Source of the DNA: Eledone cirrhosa
Lineage: Eukaryota
Assembly (NCBI GenBank): GCA_964016885.1
Contig: OZ024743.1
Span: 226,052,001 to 226,116,000, forward strand
Length of the DNA: 64,000 bases
Direction: 5' to 3'
Below the pieces are notes generated by a model that worked only from the letters and a program-made list of their open reading frames with translations, had not been told where the DNA came from and ran no database searches. Made by a program: the position numbers and the translations under genes. Each line of letters begins with the position of its first letter. Within the stretch, counting starts at the first letter, position 1. Below are positions 9,454 to 55,675 of this stretch, piece by piece.

Positions 9454-9513
<60 letters not shown>

Positions 9514-9630
9514 ACGATAAATTAACGGAGCCATAGACTCTCGCTATTCCCTGTCATTAATGTGCTCAAAGGAGAAGGAGTTCAGAGCCCTTTATAATAC
9601 AATATGTTGAAAAGATAACACACTAGAGAG

Positions 9631-10100
9631 AGAGAGATAGTGCGCCATCAATCAGACAGGGAAAAACCACCAATGCATGGGATCTATAGCCCATGGAAGG
9701 CAGAGTAGATACACACTGATTAAAAGTATAAATTAAAGTGTAGATACATACCTCGATAACTATCTAACTATCTGAGATGTATAGCCTTACACACGCTGAT
9801 GAATCATGGGCTAATCATTTCTGTCAACAACTTATTTGGCGAAACAGATCTTTTTGGATTTGTACGTGTGTGTTCGATAGTTATCGAGGTATGTATTTAC
9901 ACTTTAATTTATACTTTTAATTATTGAGTGTCTACTCTGCCTTCTATGGGCTATAGATCCCATACACTGGGGGTTTTTCCCTGTAATTGATGGCCCCCTA
10001 TCTCTCTTATTGGTAACATGACCCTCCCAAAGTATAACAATATCGGTTTCAACACACGATTTCAGATAAAGAATCTTGCTAAACAAATTCAGAAACGAAA
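9631..10100 (+). mobile_element. Non-coding fold-back element with HHR in the loop and the PLE2 3' terminus
   Basis: Inverted arms ~9631-9764 and 9876-10007; 10018-10100 identical to 51966-52048; followed by (TA)n. Confidence 0.8.
9789..9871 (+). ncRNA. Type I hammerhead ribozyme
   Basis: Stem I ACACACG/CGTGTGT, CTGATGA, GAAA, stem III CAGATC/GATTTG, GTA cleavage triplet. Confidence 0.85.
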
Positions 10101-18809: not shown

Positions 18810-18840
<31 letters not shown>

Positions 18841-19363
18841 ATATTTGGGGAGGGTCATATTTGCGTAATATTGCCAGAATTAATAACAGAACACACTCAC
18901 TGTTTGGTTGGTTTTCGCTTCTCGCTGTCTTTTATATATATATATCTGCGATCTAGCTTACTCGGTCCTCAATGTTGCCATTGACTGACCGGCGGTCAAA
19001 AATAATACCGATACAATATAGACAAACACATATATATATAGTTTACATAAATCTTTCGTTGCACATCTGCAACATCGTCAGTGGTGTTATATTCATTGTT
19101 CCTCCTGTTGTGTTGTATGTCTACGCCATTTTTTTTGTTCAGTCTGTCTATATATTTATTTATTTATTTGCTTGTTTGTTTATCTTATTTTATTTTGTCT
19201 TCTTTGCGCATGCGTTTGCGTGTGTGTATAGTGTTATGTGTGATGTGTGATGTGTGACTAGTGTGTATAGTGTTGTCTGCTGGGTGACTAGTGTGTGTTT
19301 ATGTGCTTGTGTATGTATTTATTTATCTTATTTTATTTAATTTAATTTAATTTACTTATTTAT

Positions 19364-20520
19364 TTATACTTCTCTTAGGTCAGTGTTGTTTGTTTGGGTG
19401 TTGTTGTTGTTCCACTCATTCTTTCTGTTTAGCTTTGGTCTTCTAATTTCTATTTCACTGGCCTCTCTGATTTGCCTATCTGCTGGGTCATTCCTATGTT
19501 TAGATATTATTCTAATTTCTATGTTGTCTATGTTACCGTCATGATGTTGTCTAGCATGTTCGTATAGTACTGACCCGTTTTTTCGTCCTTTTAGTTCCCC
19601 CCAGTGTTGGTCTATCCTTTCACCTATGCTACGAGCTGTCTCACCTATGTATGTTGTTGTCGTGTTTCTGCAAGTACCCTCTGTACATCTTATGCTATAG
19701 ACTACGTTTCTAGTTTTACAGTTTATCCGGGGGTTCACCTTACATATGATACATTTCCTATTGGTACAGTGGGTTTTCTTAAAAGGGTAGGTTTTGCTGA
19801 TCAGGGATTTTATGGTGGTTCCTGGCTTTTCTACCACCTTTATTTTTAAGTGGGTCTTTCTCAGGGCCTTTCTACACTGGTTAGCTAATTTCCCTCCAGG
19901 GGTGGCGTCCACAAACATGACACTCTGATATCTCTGGTTGTCGTACCATGATGTGGCCTTCCCTATCTTATGTCTAGCCCTATCTAAGCTATTCCATGAT
20001 TTGCTCCTGTATAGTGGGCAAATTCCTTTCATGTCCAGTTCTATGAGGGTCTTATACTTTTCCATGGCTCCTTCGTATACTCTGACTCTGTCTCTTTGGT
20101 TGTAGCCAGAGAACTGCATGCGGTTGATGAAGTGTTGGATGTGTCCTTCCATTTCTGTTGGGTCGCACATGCTGGACACATTCTTCATCACTCGTACCAA
20201 ATCTGCGATCAGAATATTAAACTTAGCACTACTGGACATTGCTGAGTTTTTGAGTATCAGGTATTTGGAGGCCATGGGTTTAGCATAGTGTGAGTGGAGA
20301 ATTTGGGCTCTCTCGTCTATAGTGTTAATCCAGAGTTCTGTGTCTAATACAGGTAGTCTATTGTTAGGGTGTTTGGAAGGGAAGTCTATAGTTACAGTTA
20401 TACTCTGGTGTATGGAATTAGCTATCTGCTGGATGCTTTCCATCGTGCTACGTTCTAAATCAAACTTGTTAGTGCTGTCTAGTGGGGGTGTTCTTATAAC
20501 TATATTGATATCGTCTACAT
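19364..20520 (-). pseudogene. Inverted partial copy of the PLE1 ORF (from the YVDD codons to the stop)
   Basis: Translation identical to the C-terminal part of 21609-25238. Confidence 0.9.
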
Positions 20521-21107
20521 CATGGTACGACAACCAGAGATATCAGAGTGTCATGTTTGTGGACGCCACCCCTGGAGGGAAATTAGCTAACCAGTGTAGA
20601 AAGGCCCTGAGAAAGACCCACTTAAAAATAAAGGTGGTAGAAAAGCCAGGAACCACCATAAAATCCCTGATCAGCAAAACCTACCCTTTTAAGAAAACCC
20701 ACTGTACCAATAGGAAATGTATCATATGTAAGGTGAACCCCCGGATAAACTGTAAAACTAGAAACGTAGTCTATAGCATAAGATGTACAGAGGGTACTTG
20801 CAGAAACACGACAACAACATACATAGGTGAGACAGCTCGTAGCATAGGTGAAAGGATAGACCAACACTGGGGGGAACTAAAAGGACGAAAAAACGGGTCA
20901 GTACTATACGAACATGCTAGACAACATCATGACGGTAACATAGACAACATAGAAATTAGAATAATATCTAAACATAGGAATGACCCAGCAGATAGGCAAA
21001 TCAGAGAGGCCAGTGAAATAGAAATTAGAAGACCAAAGCTAAACAGAAAGAATGAGTGGAACAACAACAACACCCAAACAAACAACACTGACCTAAGAGA
21101 AGTATAA
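20517..21107 (+). pseudogene. Partial tandem copy of the PLE1 GIY-YIG region
   Basis: TSWYDNQRY...DLREV identical to the ORF end. Confidence 0.9.
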
Positions 21108-21383
21108 ATAAATAAGTAAATTAAATTAAATTAAATAAAATAAGATAAATAAATACATACACAAGCACATAAACACACACTAGTCACCCAGCAGACAACA
21201 CTATACACACTAGTCACACATCACACATCACACATAACACTATACACACACGCAAACGCATGCGCAAAGAAGACAAAATAAAATAAGATAAACAAACAAG
21301 CAAATAAATAAATAAATATATAGACAGACTGAACAAAAAAAATGGCGTAGACATACAACACAACAGGAGGAACAATGAATATA

Positions 21384-21430
21384 ACACCACTGACGATGTT
21401 GCAGATGTGCAACGAAAGATTTATGTAAAC
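21384..21430 (+). ncRNA. HHR motif in PLE1 upstream pLTR
   Basis: CTGACGA-T-GTTGCA-GATG-TGCAAC-GAAA-GATTTA; stem I imperfect. Confidence 0.7.
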
Positions 21431-21608
21431 TATATATATATGTGTTTGTCTATATTGTATCTGTATTATTTTTGACCGCCGGTCAGTCAATGGCAACATT
21501 GAGGACCGAGTAAGCTAGATCGCAGATATATATATATAAAAGACAGCGAGAAGCGAAAACCAAACAGTGAGTGTGTTCTGTTATTAATTCTGGCAATATT
21601 ACGCAAAT

Positions 21609-24600
21609 ATGACCCTCCCCAAATATAACAATATCTGTTTCGACACACGATTTCATATAAAAAACCTCGCAAAACTAATTCATCGCCGCTATGGCATTAG
21701 CTTGTGCCAAGCTGAAAGGTTATTGAAAGACACTGTTTTCTGTTATATAAAAACTACAATAACAACAGAACAAATCCGCTTCTTAAAACACTGTGTTTCC
21801 TCCAAAACATACACAACAAACATATCAAAACAAGTAAATAATTTATTATTGAACAAAACACAAGCTGAACGGCTAAAACACACAATAACAGTTAATATGA
21901 AAAGAACAACATACACAAAAGTCAACGCACTCTACAGACAAAAACGCATCAACGGTAAGGAAATCCGAAATCTCATCACAGCAAACGAGAGAGATGACTT
22001 CATGAGCGTCATCCGACGCGAAACGAAATATGCTCAAAACGAATGCTGTAGGCATTTCAAGAAGAAATTAGAATGGATGAATAAGAAAAAACTACAAGAA
22101 AGGAAAATCGAATATTCTCAAAAATACCCAGATAACATCGACAACATCCGTATGAGTGATGTAAAACTACCGGAAGAATTTACCAATGACCACACAGTAA
22201 ATATCTATGGGAACACTTTAATCAGTGAACAAGAACAACAAATCCTAAAGTTACCACCAAAATTTGCCATCTACAAAAAGATTAATCCTATGGAATGCAA
22301 AACGGAGCTGGAAAAGTGTTTCACAAAAATACGTTGGAATGCAAAGGTAAACAACAACAACAATAATAACGGTAGTAGTAATATAAACAATAACTCTGGG
22401 TATAGAAATAACAGCCATAACCATAACAATGGCAGGAAAGTGAGAAATAGTGATAATGGTAATAATACTAGCGATAGACAGAACAACAACAACCACAATA
22501 ATAATAATAATAGAAACGTTAACCACAGACACAGCAACAGTGACCACAGTAGTAATAACGGTAACAATACGAACAACAACAACAACAATAACCACAGTGG
22601 TAATAATGGAAATAGTACATGTAGCAACATCAACAAAAACAAGAAACATAATAATAGTAACAACCACAATGGTAGAAATAGCAGTAACAACAACAATAAC
22701 GGTGAAGTAAACAACAATACATCTAGCAATCATAACAATAATAATATTAATGCTAAGGATAGAAACAACAACAACCACCATGATAACAATAATAGCAACA
22801 CACACAACTATGACGATAGAAATAACGACAACCCCTTAGAGAAACTATTTTTCAACCCAGCTGACAAAACATATAAGATGGGTAATATCTATCCTACGAG
22901 GTTACCCTTTAATAAAAGAGTTTGCATACCACAACAAATAGATGACGAGACGGAGGCACAGTTCACCATAGCTAGAAATAAGATTAGACAAGTAGTAGAC
23001 AGGTACACTATGAGACAGAGCAGACCAGAGGCCCAACAACTTGGGATAAAACCTGTAGAAGGCTTGGTTAGCCTCAAGCAGCGCACAAGGGATGGTGAGG
23101 TAGTGTGTCTACCCACAGATAAGTCTGGTAGGATGTCAATAGATAGCATGCCGAACTACATCGAGGCAATGCAACCCCACATCACCAACACGAGCGAAGT
23201 TGCACAACTAACACACGATGGGAGAGAAAAAATCCTCAACGCTCACATGATGATGTGGACTGACATCCTAAAGCCAAGCAGACGCACTGCCAACAACTTC
23301 CAGGCGTCTAACAATGGCATACCACCCTTGTATGGGCTCCGCAAAGACCACAAGACAGTCGACGACCCGACAATAGGACCACCAACAAGACCTGTATGCG
23401 GAGCTAATATAGCTAGCAACTACAGGATCTCCTACTTCCTCTCAATGGTTATACGCCCCATAATCAAGATGTCCCCAGATGTATGTGAAAGTACAGAGGA
23501 CCTCCTCAGCAGAATCAGTGAGTGCAACAAAAACAGGAGCCTATCCAACTGCATAATAGGCAGCATGGATGTGGTGTCACTGTACCCATCCATTAACATT
23601 GATTTTGCTGTGAAAAGATGTGTGGAGATGATCATTGAGAGTGAGGTGGAGTTCTGCGACGTCGACACAGACGAACTGGGCCTCCTACTTAGACTTACCT
23701 ACGACACTGACTACCTAGACAGCCATGACCTTAGATGTTTCTGCCCTAGTAGACCTATAAGAGGTAGACCCCCCACCATAACCTCAATGGCTAAAAAGAC
23801 TCCCATAGGAAGGTGGATTGGGTGGACCAAAGCTATACGGACCCCCCAAAACACTGATCAGGTAAGAAAAATGGTCGCACATGCAATAGGGGCTAGTATC
23901 AAAACTACCCTAAAGGGCCACATATTTAAGTTCAATGAGAAAATCTACACCCAAAATGAGGGAGCAGCCATCGGCGTCAGCATAGCTGGCGATGTTGCCA
24001 ACCTTTTCATGGTATGGTGGGAAAGGAGACTTAAAGATCTCCTTAATGAAAGCTCCATAGACCTCATCATGTACTCTCGTTATGTAGACGATATCAATAT
24101 AGTTATAAGAACACCCCCACTAGACAGCACTAACAAGTTTGATTTAGAACGTAGCACGATGGAAAGCATCCAGCAGATAGCTAATTCCATACACCAGAGT
24201 ATAACTGTAACTATAGACTTCCCTTCCAAACACCCTAACAATAGACTACCTGTATTAGACACAGAACTCTGGATTAACACTATAGACGAGAGAGCCCAAA
24301 TTCTCCACTCACACTATGCTAAACCCATGGCCTCCAAATACCTGATACTCAAAAACTCAGCAATGTCCAGTAGTGCTAAGTTTAATATTCTGATCGCAGA
24401 TTTGGTACGAGTGATGAAGAATGTGTCCAGCATGTGCGACCCAACAGAAATGGAAGGACACATCCAACACTTCATCAACCGCATGCAGTTCTCTGGCTAC
24501 AACCAAAGAGACAGAGTCAGAGTATACGAAGGAGCCATGGAAAAGTATAAGACCCTCATAGAACTGGACATGAAAGGAATTTGCCCACTATACAGGAGCA

Positions 24601-25238
24601 AATCATGGAATAGCTTAGATAGGGCTAGACATAAGATAGGGAAGGCCACATCATGGTACGACAACCAGAGATATCAGAGTGTCATGTTTGTGGACGCCAC
24701 CCCTGGAGGGAAATTAGCTAACCAGTGTAGAAAGGCCCTGAGAAAGACCCACTTAAAAATAAAGGTGGTAGAAAAGCCAGGAACCACCATAAAATCCCTG
24801 ATCAGCAAAACCTACCCTTTTAAGAAAACCCACTGTACCAATAGGAAATGTATCATATGTAAGGTGAACCCCCGGATAAACTGTAAAACTAGAAACGTAG
24901 TCTATAGCATAAGATGTACAGAGGGTACTTGCAGAAACACGACAACAACATACATAGGTGAGACAGCTCGTAGCATAGGTGAAAGGATAGACCAACACTG
25001 GGGGGAACTAAAAGGACGAAAAAACGGGTCAGTACTATACGAACATGCTAGACAACATCATGACGGTAACATAGACAACATAGAAATTAGAATAATATCT
25101 AAACATAGGAATGACCCAGCAGATAGGCAAATCAGAGAGGCCAGTGAAATAGAAATTAGAAGACCAAAGCTAAACAGAAAGAATGAGTGGAACAACAACA
25201 ACACCCAAACAAACAACACTGACCTAAGAGAAGTATAA
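21609..25238 (+). CDS. PLE polyprotein: N-terminal domain, Asn-rich insert, reverse transcriptase, Cys cluster, GIY-YIG endonuclease (Neptune-like layout)
   Basis: TDKSG, YGLRKDHK, RPV, SMDVVSLYPSI, QNEGAAIG, SRYVDD, LPVLD; CxxxxCxxC; VVY..YIGETAR..ER..H..E..LN; uninterrupted 1209 aa. Confidence 0.95.
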   Translation: MTLPKYNNICFDTRFHIKNLAKLIHRRYGISLCQAERLLKDTVFCYIKTTITTEQIRFLKHCVSSKTYTTNISKQVNNLLLNKTQAERLKHTITVNMKRTTYTKVNALYRQKRINGKEIRNLITANERDDFMSVIRRETKYAQNECCRHFKKKLEWMNKKKLQERKIEYSQKYPDNIDNIRMSDVKLPEEFTNDHTVNIYGNTLISEQEQQILKLPPKFAIYKKINPMECKTELEKCFTKIRWNAKVNNNNNNNGSSNINNNSGYRNNSHNHNNGRKVRNSDNGNNTSDRQNNNNHNNNNNRNVNHRHSNSDHSSNNGNNTNNNNNNNHSGNNGNSTCSNINKNKKHNNSNNHNGRNSSNNNNNGEVNNNTSSNHNNNNINAKDRNNNNHHDNNNSNTHNYDDRNNDNPLEKLFFNPADKTYKMGNIYPTRLPFNKRVCIPQQIDDETEAQFTIARNKIRQVVDRYTMRQSRPEAQQLGIKPVEGLVSLKQRTRDGEVVCLPTDKSGRMSIDSMPNYIEAMQPHITNTSEVAQLTHDGREKILNAHMMMWTDILKPSRRTANNFQASNNGIPPLYGLRKDHKTVDDPTIGPPTRPVCGANIASNYRISYFLSMVIRPIIKMSPDVCESTEDLLSRISECNKNRSLSNCIIGSMDVVSLYPSINIDFAVKRCVEMIIESEVEFCDVDTDELGLLLRLTYDTDYLDSHDLRCFCPSRPIRGRPPTITSMAKKTPIGRWIGWTKAIRTPQNTDQVRKMVAHAIGASIKTTLKGHIFKFNEKIYTQNEGAAIGVSIAGDVANLFMVWWERRLKDLLNESSIDLIMYSRYVDDINIVIRTPPLDSTNKFDLERSTMESIQQIANSIHQSITVTIDFPSKHPNNRLPVLDTELWINTIDERAQILHSHYAKPMASKYLILKNSAMSSSAKFNILIADLVRVMKNVSSMCDPTEMEGHIQHFINRMQFSGYNQRDRVRVYEGAMEKYKTLIELDMKGICPLYRSKSWNSLDRARHKIGKATSWYDNQRYQSVMFVDATPGGKLANQCRKALRKTHLKIKVVEKPGTTIKSLISKTYPFKKTHCTNRKCIICKVNPRINCKTRNVVYSIRCTEGTCRNTTTTYIGETARSIGERIDQHWGELKGRKNGSVLYEHARQHHDGNIDNIEIRIISKHRNDPADRQIREASEIEIRRPKLNRKNEWNNNNTQTNNTDLREV

Positions 25239-25514
25239 ATAAATAAGTAAATTAAATTAAATTAAATAAAATAAGATAAATAAATACATACACAAGCACA
25301 TAAACACACACTAGTCACCCAGCAGACAACACTATACACACTAGTCACACATCACACATCACACATAACACTATACACACACGCAAACGCATGCGCAAAG
25401 AAGACAAAATAAAATAAGATAAACAAACAAGCAAATAAATAAATAAATATATAGACAGACTGAACAAAAAAAATGGCGTAGACATACAACACAACAGGAG
25501 GAACAATGAATATA

Positions 25515-25561
25515 ACACCACTGACGATGTTGCAGATGTGCAACGAAAGATTTATGTAAAC
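25515..25561 (+). ncRNA. HHR motif in PLE1 3' pLTR (mirror copy 19041-19087 on minus)
   Basis: Same sequence as 21384-21430. Confidence 0.7.
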
Positions 25562-25823
25562 TATATATATATGTGTTTGTCTATATTGTATCGGTATTAT
25601 TTTTGACCGCCGGTCAGTCAATGGCAACATTGAGGACCGAGTAAGCTAGATCGCAGATATATATATATAAAAGACAGCGAGAAGCGAAAACCAACCAAAC
25701 AGTGAGTGTGTTCTGTTATTAATTCTGGCAATATTACGCAAATATGACCCTCCCCAAATATAACAATATCTGTTTCGACACACGATTTCATATAAAAAAC
25801 CTCGCAAAACTAATTCATCGCCG

Positions 25824-26119
<296 letters not shown>

Positions 26120-26803: not shown

Positions 26804-27365
26804 ATACGTACATATATATATGTGTGCATGTATGTATATATATACATACTACTGTACGTCTGTATACATATATGTATGTACGTATACATACTTATATTTA
26901 AGTAACAGCCGTACTAAGAGTGAGAAATGAAATTTCGTTTCATTTTTTCCGTTTATCGTTTTCGGTGCGCCCGGCCGATTAACTCACTCGATATGCAAAT
27001 TAGCCTGCTCAGCCGTTAATATGCATAAGGAAAGTATATACTTTCAGACATTCAATCATCTGGCAGGAAGGTATACGGTGCTGACGATAGCTAATAAGCT
27101 TGAAACTAGTACATCGTTCCTTTGTCAGTGTTGAACAAAAGGGTAACGATGGTTGCTAAACACTGTACAGCTTAATTCGGGATGTTGTTTACAAACACAC
27201 TGAGCATTATAATAAATGTTCGGTGAATCCATACGTACATATATATGTGTGCATGTATGTATATATATACATACTACTGTACGTCTGTATACATATATGT
27301 ATGTACGTATACATACTTAACAGCCGTACTAAGAGTGAGAAATGAAATTTCGTTTCATTTTTTCC

Positions 27366-28292: not shown

Positions 28293-28417
28293 AAGTGAAA
28301 CTCAACTGTTGCGCGTGTTTTTATTGTCAACTTGACCCTCCGAAAGTAAAACATTATCTGTTTCACCACATGTCACCACATTAAAAGTCTTATTAAAGGA
28401 ATTTAAAAAAACGAAGT
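28293..28417 (+). mobile_element. Degenerate copy of the PLE2 3' terminus
   Basis: Alignable by eye to 51928-52050 and ends at the same point in (TA)n. Confidence 0.7.
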
Positions 28418-28455
28418 ATATATATATATATATATATATGTGTGTATGTAAAAGG

Positions 28456-36972: not shown

Positions 36973-37164
36973 ACACACAGACACACACACAGACACACAC
37001 ACACACACACACGCACACACACACACACACACACAGACACACACACATGCAATTACACACTCACACACACACAAACACATGCGCACACATTATATATATA
37101 TATGCACATAATATATGTAATACATTATGTATATATTACATATATTATAAGTGTAATATATATA

Positions 37165-37263
<99 letters not shown>

Positions 37264-37474
37264 CACTTATAATATATGTAATATATGTAAAATCTGGAGG
37301 TTTTCCCCTGTGAGTTATGCAGTTGCTTCTACAAAACACTGTTATCCACAACACTGGTGCAGAACAAAATATCTGTTGATAACATGATATTCCTCGTTCG
37401 ATCATTATAGCAAAAGCTTATTGTTTTAAGCAGATAGTATTATTGATTTAGGTGTCACAGAAACCCTGTACTGG

Positions 37475-38261
37475 ATTTTAGTAAGTTGATTTTATAATTT
37501 TCTTATTTTACGTCTCTCATATTATTGTTCTGCAACCCCATGCATTGAACCACAAAGTTACTAAGACAAAACCTATATATTTGCTAGCATAAGTATGCAT
37601 CTGTGTGTATATATATATGTTACTAGATATACTAATTCTTTATAATTATCTCCAAATTATTTGTCGAGCAAAATTGGCCAAGACTGCTGCTATGGTAACA
37701 GTCAGGCTGATGTCTTCTTAACAAACCACTTTCCACTGATTGACTTCGATGTCACGTGATTGATTCTTTTGAATTTGCCACCGACGCAGTAGGCAGTGAT
37801 TTTCTCAATGGCTAGGAATTTAGTCCACGCTTTGATTTTTTCTATCCACTGAATTATTTTTGTATAAGTTCCCAGTGTCCACGTATTTCCTGGAAACTTA
37901 GCTGAGAATAGACTTCCCTGATGACGAAAGGCTTCTCTGTACACTTCTTCGGAAAGTGTGTTTATTCCCTTTCAGAAACTAATTAGTTGGGAGTGAAATT
38001 TTAGTAAGTAAGTTAATTTTATAATTTTCTTATTTTACGTCTCTCATATTATTGTTCTGCAACCCCATGCATTGAACCACAAAGTTACTAAGACAAAACC
38101 TATATATTTGCTAGCATAAGTATACATCTGTGTGTATATATATGTTACTAGATATACTAATTAAAAATAAAAAAAATAAAAATGTTTTAATTTAAAATAA
38201 ATTGGAGTGAAAGCAACTGGTGCGTGTGTTTCTTATTGGCAACATGACCCTCCCAAAGTAT

Positions 38262-38270
<9 letters not shown>
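37475..38270 (+). mobile_element. Retrozyme-like element: direct repeats, HHR and the PLE2 terminus
   Basis: Repeats 37475-37637 and 37998-38162; HHR 37912-37994; 38197-38270 matches the PLE2 end. Confidence 0.8.
37912..37994 (+). ncRNA. Type I hammerhead ribozyme
   Basis: ACTTCC-CTGATGA-C-GAAAGG..(cTTCGg-capped hairpin)..CCTTTC-A-GAAA-CT-AATT-AG-TT-GGGAGT. Confidence 0.85.
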
Positions 38271-38355
<85 letters not shown>

Positions 38356-47390: not shown

Positions 47391-47461
47391 TATTTTATCT
47401 GACGAAAACGCAAATGTCATCGCATGATGATATTTGTTTTTGAAATGCGCATAATAAAATA
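47391..47461 (+). ncRNA. Type I hammerhead ribozyme (mirror copies 45059-45129 and 47554-47624 on minus)
   Basis: TATTTTAT-CTGACGA-long stem II-GAAA-T-GCGC-ATA-ATAAAATA. Confidence 0.85.
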
Positions 47462-48330: not shown

Positions 48331-48371
<41 letters not shown>

Positions 48372-48872
48372 ATACTTTGGGAGGGTCATGTTGCCAATAA
48401 GAAACACACGCACCAGTTGCTTTCACTTCAATTTAATTTATTATATATTTATAAATTTACAAATTTATAAATTTCTGGTTGGTTGGTTGGTTCCACAACC
48501 AGATAGTTGTTTATATATATATAGTCATAGTTCTTTCGTCACACACTCTGTGACCTCTTCAGTGACTGGGGATTTCTTTCTTCGTTTCTGTGCCTTTCCT
48601 TTCTTCTATCCTACGCCATTTTGTTTGTGTGTGGGTTGCGTGCTCAGTTTGCGCATGCGCCACATCCGGGTGTCTGTGTGTGTTTGTGTTCATTTTTCTA
48701 TTTTTCTATTTATATTTTTCTATTTGTTTATTTATTTATTTATTTATTGTTGGTTGGTTGTTTGTTCTATGTGTGTGTGTGTTTTCATTTTGTCTTGTAT
48801 GTGTTTTCATTTTGTGTGTGTTTTCAATTGTAAGTTGTTTGTTCTATGTGTGTGTGTGTTTTCATTTTGTCC

Positions 48873-50380
48873 TTAATTGTAAGTTGTGATGTTGCTGTTC
48901 CACTCATATTTTCTATTTAATTTTGGTTTTAATTCTTTTATGCTTACTGCCTCTGTAATTTGCCTAAACATTGCGTCTTTCTTGTGTGTGGATTCTATTT
49001 TTATTTCTATGCTCTCTAATTTACCCCTGTGTTCTATCTTAGCATGTTGGTAGAGCACAGATGATTCTTTATTATCTTGGAGGTCTCGCCAGTGTTCATT
49101 TATTCGTTCCCCTATACTACGAGCTGTCTCACCTATGTACACTATATTTTTGTTTCTACATTGTCCTTCAGTACATCTTATGCTATATACTACATTTCTG
49201 GTTTTACAGTTAATATGGGGGCTTATTTTACAGGTTATACATTTCTTATCTATACATGAGGGTCTTTGGAACGGGTATGTCTTGCTAATAAGTGTTTTTA
49301 CGGAGGTACCAGGTCTTTCTACTATCTTAATATTGAGATTATGTTTCTTTAGGGCCCTTCTAAATTTGTAGGCTAGTTCGCCTCTAGGGGTTGTATTGAT
49401 GAACATTACACTCTGGTATTTATTGCTATCATACCATGAGTTTATTCTATTGGCCTTGTTCCTAGTTCTTTCTATTCTATTCCAAAATTTGCTCCTATAC
49501 AAGGGGCAGGTCCCATTTATGTCATTATTTACCATTTTTTCCCATTTGGTTCTGGCTCCTTTATACACTCTGATTCTATCTCTCTGATTGTAGCCAGAGA
49601 ACTGCATACGGTGGATGAAGTGTTGTATGTGTCTCTCTAGTTCTTCGGGGTTGCACATGCGGGACACATTTCTCATCACCCGTACCAAATCCGCAATCAG
49701 TATGTTGATTTTGGTATGGTCCGAAATGGCCGAGTTTCGGTGGATCAGATGTTTGGAAGTCATGGGTTTGGCATAATGGGAATGGAGGATTTGTTTTTGG
49801 TTGTTAATTGTATCTAACCAGAGCTCTGTGTCTAGTACAGGTAATCGATGGTTGGGGTGTCACTTGGGTAGTCTATAGTAACTCTAATGCTCTGGTGGAT
49901 GGAGTTTGCTATTTGCTGGATGCTTTCCATTGTGTTTTTCTCTAGTTCCTGACTGTTCTTTAGTGGGGGTGTCTTAACTACGATGTTTATATCATCTACG
50001 TAGCGGGAGTACATTATCAGGGTTAAGCTGTCTTCTAATTGTTCATTAAGTTTTTGTTTAAGTCTACTGTCCCACCATACCATGAATAAGTTAGCTATGT
50101 CGCCTGCAATGCTAACACCAATGGCTGCTCCTTCCTCTTGGGCATATGTTTTACCATTAAATTTGAACATATGTTCCTTAAGGGTTAATTTTATGCTGGC
50201 CCCTACCGCATGTGCAATCATTTTCTTCAGTTCATCGTGGTTTTCGGGTGTCCGTATGGCTCTGGTCCACCCGTTCCATCTATCTGTGTGGGTTTTCTTG
50301 GCCATTGAGGTAATGGTAGGTGGTCTGCCTCTTGCTGGTCTTGTAGGGCACAGGTTGCTAAGGTCATAAGTGTCTAGGTA
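48873..50380 (-). pseudogene. Inverted partial RT + GIY-YIG of PLE2
   Basis: QEEGAAIG, SRYVDD, VVY..YIGETAR; 1-nt deletion near 49862 splits the frame. Confidence 0.9.
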
Positions 50381-51483
50381 AGACACCCCCACTAAAGAAC
50401 AGTCAGGAACTAGAGAAAAACACAATGGAAAGCATCCAGCAAATAGCAAACTCCATCCACCAGAGCATTAGTGTTACTATAGACTACCCAAGTAGACACC
50501 CCAACCATCGATTACCTGTACTAGACACAGAGCTCTGGTTAGATACAATTAACAACCAAAAACAAATCCTCCATTCCCATTATGCCAAACCCATGACTTC
50601 CAAACATCTGATCCACCGAAACTCGGCCATTTCGGACCATACCAAAATCAACATACTGATTGCGGATTTGGTACGGGTGATGAGAAATGTGTCCCGCATG
50701 TGCAACCCCGAAGAACTAGAGAGACACATACAACACTTCATCCACCGTATGCAGTTCTCTGGCTACAATCAGAGAGATAGAATCAGAGTGTATAAAGGAG
50801 CCAGAACCAAATGGGAAAAAATGGTAAATAATGACATAAATGGGACCTGCCCCTTGTATAGGAGCAAATTTTGGAATAGAATAGAAAGAACTAGGAACAA
50901 GGCCAATAGAATAAACTCATGGTATGATAGCAATAAATACCAGAGTGTAATGTTCATCAATACAACCCCTAGAGGCGAACTAGCCTACAAATTTAGAAGG
51001 GCCCTAAAGAAACATAATCTCAATATTAAGATAGTAGAAAGACCTGGTACCTCCGTAAAAACACTTATTAGCAAGACATACCCGTTCCAAAGACCCTCAT
51101 GTATAGATAAGAAATGTATAACCTGTAAAATAAGCCCCCATATTAACTGTAAAACCAGAAATGTAGTATATAGCATAAGATGTACTGAAGGACAATGTAG
51201 AAACAAAAATATAGTGTACATAGGTGAGACAGCTCGTAGTATAGGGGAACGAATAAATGAACACTGGCGAGACCTCCAAGATAATAAAGAATCATCTGTG
51301 CTCTACCAACATGCTAAGATAGAACACAGGGGTAAATTAGAGAGCATAGAAATAAAAATAGAATCCACACACAAGAAAGACGCAATGTTTAGGCAAATTA
51401 CAGAGGCAGCAAGCATAAAAGAATTAAAACCAAAATTAAATAGAAAATATGAGTGGAACAGCAACATCACAACTTACAATTAA
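50379..51483 (+). pseudogene. Partial RT thumb + GIY-YIG of PLE2
   Basis: 352-aa ORF starting just after the YVDD codons. Confidence 0.9.
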
Positions 51484-51788
51484 GGACAAAATGAAAACAC
51501 ACACACACATAGAACAAACAACTTACAATTGAAAACACACACAAAATGAAAACACACACAAGACAAAATGAAAACACACACACACATAGAACAAACAACC
51601 AACCAACAATAAATAAATAAATAAATAAACAAATAGAAAAATATAAATAGAAAAATAGAAAAATGAACACAAACACACACAGACACCCGGATGTGGCGCA
51701 TGCGCAAACTGAGCACGCAACCCACACACAAACAAAATGGCGTAGGATAGAAGAAAGGAAAGGCACAGAAACGAAGAAAGAAATCCCC

Positions 51789-51833
51789 AGTCACTGAAGA
51801 GGTCACAGAGTGTGTGACGAAAGAACTATGACT
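51789..51833 (+). ncRNA. Minimal type I HHR of the PLE2 pLTR (mirror 48523-48567 on minus)
   Basis: AGTCA-CTGAAGA-G-GTCAC-AGAGTGT-GTGAC-GAAA-G-AA-CTA-TGACT. Confidence 0.85.
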
Positions 51834-52045
51834 ATATATATATAAACAACTATCTGGTTGTGGAACCAACCAACCAACCAGAAATTTATAAATTTGTAAA
51901 TTTATAAATATATAATAAATTAAATTGAAGTGAAAGCAACTGGTGCGTGTGTTTCTTAAGGCAACATGACCCTCCCAAAGTATAACAATATCGGTTTCAA
52001 CACACGATTTCAGATAAAGAATCTTGCTAAACAAATTCAGAAACG

Positions 52046-52082
<37 letters not shown>

Positions 52083-52085
<3 letters not shown>

Positions 52086-52950: not shown

Positions 52951-52996
<46 letters not shown>

Positions 52997-52999
<3 letters not shown>

Positions 53000-55621
53000 T
53001 TAGCCTAAGAAAATATCTATATGCGTGTGTAATTTATACACGCATATATTTATTTTTTTAATTTCAATTGAGTTCTTAACACGTTGGATTGATAATGTTT
53101 TCGAAAAAACTGATTAACCCGCGTGTATATTATTTTTTTTTCCTCCTTTCGTGGATCGTGGTTGTCTCCCCTTCCCGCTTAGTGACACTATAATACTTCC
53201 TCAGTCAAAAACTGCTGGAATTTCAAATTTGCCGGTCATTCGATGCGGGAAGGAGCAACTTAACGGACACGATTTTTAACTGTGGTAAGAAATGTTTTTC
53301 TTATATCAAAGTTTATTGGGCTTCCACTGATGATTTATAAGCGCCCACCTAAATATATTCTTACATGAATGTATATTAGGCTTCTACATAAACTGGAAAT
53401 ATTCTCCGAATTTGAAGAAAACTTATAATGAAACAATTGTTTGGAAAGAGAGAAATATTTTAACTTTAATTACATCTCATAAAATAATACAACTGGCTTT
53501 TCCACATAATACATATTGTTAGCACCCCAAACACTTAAATTGGGTTTATATTAAAATATAACCTAATATTTGTTGAGTGAGATGGTTACCAGTCAGAGAT
53601 TAGCTTTAAACTATCTCTGTTATTGTATTAATATTTTACTCTTGATTGGCCAGATGTGTTTATTTCCAGGTACATTATAAATTTGACTTTCCGTATTTAT
53701 TACTGTTGTGCGATATTGTGGTTTTTATTGGTTGTAACTTCTCTGTTTTTTAGCCTAAGAAAATATATATATGCCTATGTATATAATTACATGCATACAT
53801 TTATTTTTTCAAATTAATTGAGTTCTTTACACGAGGAATTGATATTGGTTTTGAAATAACTAATTAACCCGAGTGTGTTTTATATTTTACTCTTAATTCG
53901 GCCGGAGATTTACATTCCCATTTGCCCTTTAAAGCATAACTTTCCGTATTTACTACGGTTACGAGATGCAGTTTCTTATTCAGATACAACCTCTTGTTTT
54001 AGCCTAAGAAAATATCTATATGCGTGTGTAATTTATACACGCATATATTTATTTTTTTAATTTCAATTGAGTTCTTAACACGTTGGATTGATAATGTTTT
54101 CGAAAAAACTGATTAACCCGCGTGTATATTATTTTTTTTTCCTCCTTTCGTTGATCGTGGTTGTCTCCCCTTCCCGCTTAGTGACGCTATAATACTTCCT
54201 CAGTCAAAAACTGCTGGAATTTCAAATTTGCCGGTCATTCGATGCGGGAAGGAGCAACTTAACGGACACGATTTTTAACTGTGGTAAGAAATGTTTTTCT
54301 TATATCAAAGTTTATTGGGCTTCCACTGATGATTTATAAGCGCCCACCTAAATATATTCTTACATGAATGTATATTAGGCTTCTACATAAACTGGAAATA
54401 TTCTCCGAATTTGAAGAAAACTTATAATGAAACAATTGTTTGGAAAGAGAGAAATATTTTAACTTTAATTACATCTCATAAAATAATACAACTGGCTTTT
54501 CCACATAATACATATTGTTAGCACCCCAAACACTTAAATTGGGTTTATATTAAAATATAACCTAATGTTTGTTGAGTGAGATGGTTACCAGTCAGAGATT
54601 AGCTTTAAACTATCTCTGTTATTGTATTAATATTTTACTCTTGATTGGCCAGATGTGTTTATTTCCAGGTACATTATAAATTTGACTTTCCGTATTTATT
54701 ACTGTTGTGCGATATTGTGGTTTTTATTGGTTGTAACTTCTCTGTTTTTTAGCCTAAGAAAATATATATATGCCTATGTATATAATTACATGCATACATT
54801 TATTTTTTCAAATTAATTGAGTTCTTTACACGAGGAATTGATATTGGTTTTGAAATAACTAATTAACCCGAGTGTGTTTTATATTTTACTCTTAATTCGG
54901 CCGGAGATTTACATTCCCATTTGCCCTTTAAAGCATAACTTTCCGTATTTACTACGGTTACGAGATGCAGTTTCTTATTCAGGTACAACCTCTTGTTTTA
55001 GCCTAAGAAAATATCTATATGCGTGTGTAATTTATACACGCATATATTTATTTTTTTAATTTCAATTGAGTTCTTAACACGTTGGATTGATAATGTTTTC
55101 GAAAAAACTGATTAATCCGCGTGTATATTATTTTTTTTCCTCCTTTCGTGGATCGTGGTTGTCTCCCCTTCCCGCTTAGTGACGCTATAATACTTCCGCA
55201 GTCAAAAACTGCTGGAATTTCAAATTTGCCGGTCATTCGATCCGGGAAGGAGCAACTTAACGGACACGATTTTTAACTGTGGTAAGAAATGTTTTTCTTA
55301 TATCAAAGTTTATTGGGCTTCCACTGATGATTTATAAGCGCCCACCTAAATATATTCTTACATAAATGTATATTATGCTTCTACATAAACTGGAAATATT
55401 CTCCGAATTTGTAGAAAACTTATAATGAAACAATTGTTTGGAAATAAGATATATTTTAACTTTAATTATATCTCATAAAATAATACAACTGGCGTTTCCA
55501 CATAATACATATTGTTAGCACCCCAAACACTTAAATTGGGTTTATATTAAAATATAACCTAATGTTTGTTGAGTGAGATGGTTACCAGTCAGAGATTAGC
55601 TTTAAGCTATCTCTGTTATTG

Positions 55622-55626
<5 letters not shown>
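52997..55626. repeat. 999-bp tandem repeat, ~2.6 copies, TA-flanked
   Basis: Identical ORF starts at 53875 and 54874; internal ~250-bp sub-duplication. Confidence 0.9.

Positions 55627-55675
<49 letters not shown>

Follow-up and report, generated by a model that had tools for sequence, protein, structure and literature searches.

The described systems that come closest to the element reported here are the metazoan non-LTR retrozymes, which PMC7229834 (Cervera and de la Pena 2020) describes as AT-rich, very abundant, non-coding units that carry a type I hammerhead with a short palindromic stem III and are found beside PLEs. All of these traits recur in an element at 37475-38270 of the window, by which we mean the whole 64-kb stretch of AT-rich, microsatellite-rich animal DNA that was analyzed. 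Even a mismatch at the base of stem II has a counterpart, the U.U of the axolotl ribozyme HHR_Amex2 (PMC7229834). The element differs from the retrozymes described there in the length of its unit (523 nt versus 150-450 nt), in a long stem II with a distal UUCG hairpin, and in the extent of the copy (1.3 units with one ribozyme); it is, moreover, known from DNA alone.

What moves animal retrozymes is a question to which PMC7229834 offers PLEs only as a proposal; the element studied here ends in the start of a PLE ORF. The preprint bioRxiv 10.64898/2026.07.22.740005 (Li, Clavereau, Pollet) argues for PLEs from co-occurrence and homology. A PLE origin of animal retrozymes is already its thesis, and the class is known. 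Among 57 Xenopus retrozyme families, 24 are reported there to match Repbase TEs, nearly all of them PLEs; monomer copies are described as common, and a SINE-LINE-like partnership is proposed. Our element shares with these retrozymes the similarity to PLE termini, and its 523 nt fall within their range of 51-972 bp. As described, the 35 species of that work include no mollusc, and its main text relates neither ends to RT start sites nor 5' ends to the cut. In the present case, the ribozyme and the unit are unlike those of PLE2, a PLE of the same window, and only 77 nt are common to the two.

Further likenesses connect the element to PLEs themselves. With the PLE pseudo-LTR hammerheads, as described in PMC4209133, it shares the bulged base after position 9, the G10.1-C11.1 pair and the palindromic stem III, but it differs from them in a unit without an ORF and in an extra A before GAAA. 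As in the two-site 'tail' of a PLE described in PMC11167929, the ends found here lie inside the ORF start at two fixed sites, and the target is AT-rich; they share ATAT with that target, whereas the anole element of the same study is reported to have started at a site non-homologous to the cut DNA. Non-autonomous Chlamys PLEs such as MRC1 likewise form head-to-tail copies with 3' similarity to autonomous families (PMC8557442 section 10); unlike the present element, they are described as belonging to a green alga and a permuted-domain clade and as mostly lacking hammerheads. PLE ends acting in trans have also been described (PMC3846280). Plant LTR retrozymes are non-coding and ribozyme-bearing with direct repeats at both ends as well, but they possess a type III ribozyme within their LTRs, a PBS/PPT and a 4-bp TSD, whereas the element has a type I ribozyme outside its repeats and a PLE end. 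By motif and unit, the element thus resembles a metazoan non-LTR retrozyme and, at the same time, a non-autonomous PLE.

Literature searches, which covered few subscription papers, found no paper on cephalopod retrozymes, and the word 'ribozyme' occurs 0 times in the text and supplement of an octopus repeat annotation (PMC13282606). Besides the identity of the mover, a second question is whether PLE hammerheads cut in vivo: PMC8557442 calls the role of the ribozyme unclear, and PMC11167929 found cleavage dispensable in vitro. We describe an element that looks like an unusually clear footprint of a PLE-driven insertion, with a 5' end suggestive of definition by the ribozyme. A family of so many copies, in which one end would be a PLE start signal and the other possibly defined by the cut, makes both questions addressable by mapping ends in a single genome.

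Architecture of the Element

Table 1. Coordinates of the element at 37475-38270, its surroundings and the other main elements of the window.
Feature	Position	Strand	Basis
Repeat 1, 5' end of the insertion	37475..37637	+	Repeat comparison
Middle of the 523-nt unit, non-coding	37638..37911	+	blastx, read depth
Type I hammerhead motif	37912..37994	+	Descriptor search, folding, variants in reads
Repeat 2	37998..38162	+	Repeat comparison; join to ribozyme bridged by X1-8, X2-16
A/T-rich linker, differs from the corresponding PLE2 stretch	38163..38192	+	Sequence comparison
PLE2-type end: end of 5'-UTR, ATG at 38244, first codons; proximal of two terminal offsets	38193..38269	+	
(AT)n target; ATAT common to target and element end	38266..38355	.	
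Separate lower-copy repeat forming the 5' flank, most likely outside the element	37360..37468	.	Depth; records X1-2, X2-10, X4-17
PLE1: whole ORF (ATG 21609 to 25238), RT motif, CX4CxxC linker, C-terminal GIY-YIG-type domain	18833..25861	.	
PLE2: 5'-truncated inverted/direct pair, RT and GIY-YIG coding remains	48334..52083	.	
Second element with a hammerhead (core at 9796); stem III long, cut predicted after 9864	9505-10100		

The original prediction had placed a ribozyme cut at 37988, the start of repeat 2 at 37998, and the start of repeat 1 about 10 nt past the equivalent cut; our analysis agrees. Over 158 alignment columns, positions 37480-37637 match 38007-38162 at 97.5% identity, with 2 substitutions and a single 2-nt gap, and the direct repeat can be prolonged across a 4-nt duplication. 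Because the repeats then reach 37475 and 37998, their start-to-start distance is 523 nt. They are separated by the hammerhead and a middle of 274 nt, and nine bases (37989-37997) lie between the predicted cut and repeat 2. The window contains only this one copy of the element, and long microsatellites flank the locus.

No ORF remains in the 523-nt unit, and the best blastx match of its middle among 116 PLE-type proteins had an E value of 7.3. An ORF for RT plus GIY-YIG is absent from the element, which contains only the first eight PLE codons. At the insertion, whose 3' end meets (AT)n, no target-site duplication was seen by eye; missing duplications are described as common at microsatellite targets (PMC8557442 section 15).

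When read by eye, the stretch 37481-37668 shows a repeat that opens with GTAAGT and an AG about 30 nt into the middle. We take the GTAAGT to be splice-donor-like and the end of the repeat to hold a branch-point-like motif. Introns in the 5'-UTR of PLEs are known (PMC8557442 section 10). We also observed that a 9-mer located after the predicted ribozyme cut (37990-37998) recurs near the start of the PLE-type end (38204-38212) and nowhere else in the window; it could be a relic of the parental UTR or an old duplication. A direct join of ribozyme to tail via this 9-mer (37990, 38204) was not found among the joints listed in the read data. Upstream of the element, short inverted copies (37124-37155 and 37262-37293) stand on either side of an (AT)n run at 37160-37261.

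Sequence, Variants, and Predicted Folding of the Hammerhead Motif

Stem I of the motif consists of 6 bp, one of them G.U, formed by 37912-17 with 37989-94. The core is made up of CUGAUGA (37918-24) and GAAA (37975-78), and the cut is predicted after GUU at 37988. A bulged C37925 follows position 9, G37926 pairs with C37973 (G10.1-C11.1), the UUCG hairpin of stem II spans 37940-60, and the palindromic stem III spans 37977-88. Both a palindrome in stem III and a cUUCGg loop in stem II had been claimed beforehand, and we recovered both by sequence, descriptor, and folding. The earlier reading did not mention an extra A37974, which precedes GAAA and lies opposite the usual bulged base C37925. This nucleotide and the GUU triplet may lower the activity of the ribozyme.

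Hammerheads were sought with a purpose-made descriptor, which returned 16 rows (14 sites) in the window and matched one of 1000 dinucleotide shuffles of 37262-38270. Rfam reported no hammerhead at the locus, either at the gathering score or at E values up to 5; its weak miRNA matches derive from AT runs and were discarded. Pattern scans of viral contigs, metagenome contigs, and prokaryote genomes returned 0 loci.

In folding predictions, stem III had an energy of +1.5 kcal/mol as a hairpin and of -9.0 as a duplex of two copies, values that would fit cleavage as a dimer. Stem I was predicted to be mostly unformed within the whole unit (P 0.03-0.04), pairing of the tail with stem I had a P of 0.0, and the predicted fold of a 523-nt circle was no better than that of shuffles (z -1.4; 9 of 100 as good). 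A helix between 37727-42 and 37980-95, which would oppose ribozyme formation, was predicted at P 0.8-0.9 in long transcripts. Such a helix would neatly account for an uncut last ribozyme; since 75-263 of 1000 shuffles pair equally well, the predicted helix is no better than chance pairing and we do not count it as evidence.

Variants among the reads bear on both stems. In stem II, C37969A is accompanied by an altered partner base in the consensus of the loose ends behind 37914; in stem I, the loss of one G at 37989 goes together with the loss of one U on the opposite strand. These changes look compensatory, the pairing being deduced from variants in unphased reads.

Abundance of the Repeat in Sequencing Reads

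We analyzed four of the 20 listed public runs (X1, X2, X4, and X18) and left out X5-X17, which make up a small share; X1 and X2 represent one sample, from which the window itself may derive, and X4 represents organism B. Every part of the unit reached very high depth in X1 and X2 and was present in X4 and X18, so that the family exists in organism B too. Across 37500-38145, the summed contig depth in X1 ranged from 22,000 to 609,000, compared with 7.7 for the locus-specific contig; because summed contig depth is not equal to copy number, we give the abundance only as thousands-fold over the single locus.

The join between ribozyme and repeat was bridged in both X1 and X2, with at least 31 letters on each side. 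At the join between repeat and middle (37637/8), the bin depth was 171,000 and loose ends read into repeat sequence; among the listed records, none reaches 31 letters on each side of it, and the best has 77 and 25 (X4-18). None of the records listed contains two ribozymes. At the family-variable sites that we checked, repeats 1 and 2 carry the same letter in 6 of 6 cases, including sites at which 64-77% of the X1 depth differs. We conclude from these data that the element is one of the dispersed copies of a non-coding repeat that is very abundant and bears a hammerhead motif.

The PLE-Type Terminus

A match of the element end to PLE2 over about 75 nt had been claimed; we found 77 nt (38193-38269 versus PLE2 51916-51991) at 94.8% identity, and compared with PLE2 48440-48334 the tail is 98.1% identical over 107 nt, AT run included. 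These shared 77 nt correspond to the end of the PLE2 5'-UTR, the start codon, and the first eight codons, which the original prediction did not say. Upstream of them, nothing is common to the element and PLE2, and this includes the ribozymes: PLE2 has its own, different hammerhead (51794 on the + strand, 48562 on the - strand). The order of hammerhead, UTR, and ATG follows a pseudo-LTR layout, in which the ATG lies 256 nt past the cut as compared to 138 nt in PLE2.

The PLE ORF-start motif has eight matches in the window, one of which is the true start of PLE1 while the other seven are ends of elements. Three of the seven stop at +22, namely the 37475-38269 element and, in both PLE1 and PLE2, the inverted arm; the remaining four stop at +81 to +85 (counted from the ATG, the direct arm of either PLE at +81/82), and all seven run into (AT)n. 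That every one of these termini lies at one of two offsets in (AT)n points to PLE-primed insertion. In vitro work on an anole PLE showed that its RT starts at two fixed sites within the beginning of the ORF, the stretch between the sites forming a 'tail' (PMC11167929). On the evidence of the sequence, the offset match is the strongest argument that PLE machinery likely made the insertion.

The read-depth analysis covered the sequence on either side of 38154-38187, the stretch that holds the junction of repeat and tail. At 38205, 21-30% of the depth does not carry the PLE2 letter, a depth of the same order as that of the unit, which gives weak and indirect support to a family-wide PLE tail. At 38195, the window's letter accounts for only 2.5% of the X1 depth; this fits a rare linker and counts against the explanation that we favor below.

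Judged by its ORF, PLE1 shows that the type of enzyme in question is present in the genome. The proteins of PLE1 and PLE2, each an inverted/direct pair, are 62-71% identical, and the longest ORF of the window has its best match in an Octopus vulgaris protein (68% identity), which makes a cephalopod host likely. Pfam gave 0 families for both PLE proteins, and their identity as PLEs consequently rests on motifs and homologues. The CX4CxxC linker is described as a mark of the Neptune and Nematis clades (PMC8557442), to one of which PLE1 may, judged by this motif, belong. Its ORF contains a long asparagine-rich insert resembling those described for rotifer PLEs (PMC3846280).

The 5' End of the Insertion

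In three listed records from other copies, the flanking repeat 37360-37468 stops at 37467-68, which places the start of the element at 37469-37475; an estimated 5-18% of the X18 reads at this boundary run on. The start thus lies 3-9 nt past the cut-equivalent base 37466. The chance that a start falls 10 nt or less from a fixed point of a 523-nt unit is 10/523, or about 2%, the coincidence having been noticed post hoc. In the second hammerhead element, the inverted arm (9631-9768) starts 7-11 nt past its own predicted cut. With one or two such cases, noticed after the fact, the coincidence of 5' end and cut is suggestive of an end defined by the ribozyme.

The right arm of this second element switches to the PLE2 end at about 10005, at a short match, and the left arm terminates at (TA)n in a different sequence. 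Since the PLE2 end is present on one arm only, one-off capture likely occurs in this genome.

Several candidate ends were discarded. The read and loose ends of X18 at 37496, 37637, 37772/5, 37852/5, and 38199/38200, together with a joint of 38269 to 37496, were dropped as library artefacts because all of them fall on AATT sites. A 26-nt match that would relate the 5' flank to the second hammerhead element was equalled in 5 of 500 shuffles and was not used.

Origin of the Insertion

With moderate confidence, we propose that a PLE enzyme inserted the element from a linear RNA whose front end had been cut by an upstream ribozyme. The observations to build on are the anatomy, the abundance, a ribozyme joined to the repeat in other copies as well, and a terminus at a PLE offset in (AT)n; from them we infer the following steps. 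The family would probably go back to a PLE pseudo-LTR; with the ORF lost, the 523-nt unit would have remained in tandem before the native PLE end. In the transcript of such a tandem source, an upstream hammerhead would cleave, probably as a dimer via the palindromic stem III, and the last hammerhead would stay uncut. A PLE2-type RT/GIY-YIG protein would nick (AT)n, the ATAT that (AT)n shares with the ORF start would serve for priming, and the RT would copy about 795 nt and halt near the cut end of the RNA. Cleavage at two ribozymes of the tandem source would yield, in addition, a 523-nt monomer, which lacks the PLE end and could circularize; the 37475-38269 copy itself is predicted to make no circle because it has one ribozyme only.

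The original prediction invoked reverse transcription of a self-cleaved RNA that was either longer than one unit or a circle of about 523 nt. Its first part agrees with a multi-copy repeat of more than unit length that ends at a PLE RT start site; its second part has to be restricted, since a closed 523-nt circle has no PLE end and cannot be the sole template. For such a circle to give rise to the element, the RT would have to switch templates, and a 5' end at the cut, where a circle is endless, would be better explained by a linear RNA that had been cleaved. According to PMC11167929, insertion of the PLE studied there did not require ribozyme cleavage in vitro, and none of the RNA-seq reads stopped at the cut; among the dimers tested in bioRxiv 10.64898/2026.07.22.740005, 8 of 9 are reported not to cleave.

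Of the competing explanations, a circle combined with a template switch survives best, although we consider it doubtful. A tail-less retrozyme would be expressed as 523-nt circles or multimers, and in this insertion a PLE RT would have begun on a PLE2-type RNA and jumped to the retrozyme RNA, making the PLE end a one-off chimera. Two passes over one template would be expected to leave the same letters in both repeats, as is the case at 6 of 6 variable sites, but neighboring units of one array would be expected to share them too. PMC7229834 demonstrated circles of other animal retrozymes, the junction with the PLE2 end at about 10005 is of the switch type, and the rarity of the window's letter at 38195 speaks for the same view. 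A closed circle, however, has no end at the cut, and a start there needs either linear RNA or the chance of about 2%; the 30-nt linker is, in addition, foreign to both the unit and PLE2.

Clearly less probable still is an ordinary 5'-truncated copy of an ORF-less tandem PLE end, in which the ribozyme was uninvolved and the start near the cut reflects chance or a pause of the RT at the hairpin. While PLEs are as a rule 5'-truncated (bioRxiv 10.64898/2026.07.22.740005) and can dispense with cleavage in vitro (PMC11167929), such a copy would be hard to reconcile with the apparent compensatory changes in stems I and II and with a start at most 9 nt from the cut that has a similar second case at 9796. 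It would agree with the atypical core of the hammerhead, its predicted misfolding, and the predicted sequestration of stem I in the whole unit, and depth is no proof of activity. A local duplication, the alternative raised with the original prediction, or an assembly artefact would suit a single copy in the 64-kb window at a locus between long microsatellites, but is very improbable and was rejected because other copies bridge the join of ribozyme and repeat and the variants of the ribozyme look compensatory. Both the unit and this join have very high depth in X1 and X2 and occur in X4 and X18, too, and the loose ends before 37634 run into repeat sequence.

Insertion from a linear, cleaved tandem RNA can be extended to the whole family, a step that we make tentatively and regard as rather unlikely in its entirety. 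Every dispersed copy would then possess the PLE RT start signal at its 3' end and start just past the cut at its 5' end, the last ribozyme would be held shut by the helix with 37727-42, and the family, a cephalopod retrozyme with many thousands of copies, would be a SINE-like parasite of a Neptune-type PLE. If true, this would prove from genomic data that PLE retrotransposition in vivo uses a template defined by hammerhead cleavage, and it would name the enzyme that moves an animal retrozyme.

Other Elements in the Window

An older, diverged PLE end at 28294-28420 stops at +85, and no hammerhead was found upstream of it. At 47399/47616 and 52650/52464 there are small palindromic elements, both arms of which contain a hammerhead-like motif, and more hammerhead-like motifs are present at 27081, 27546, 8112, 10639/10630, and 10901/10400. 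About 2.6 copies of a 999-bp tandem unit occupy 52995-55631; the descriptor matches within it (53327, 54326, and 55324) have a long, poor stem III and may be false. A dispersed family of about 185 bp, which we take to resemble an octopus SINE, is represented by many copies (8310, 12045, 18620, 30998, 36135, 39023, 39389, 41506, 44307, 56338, and others).
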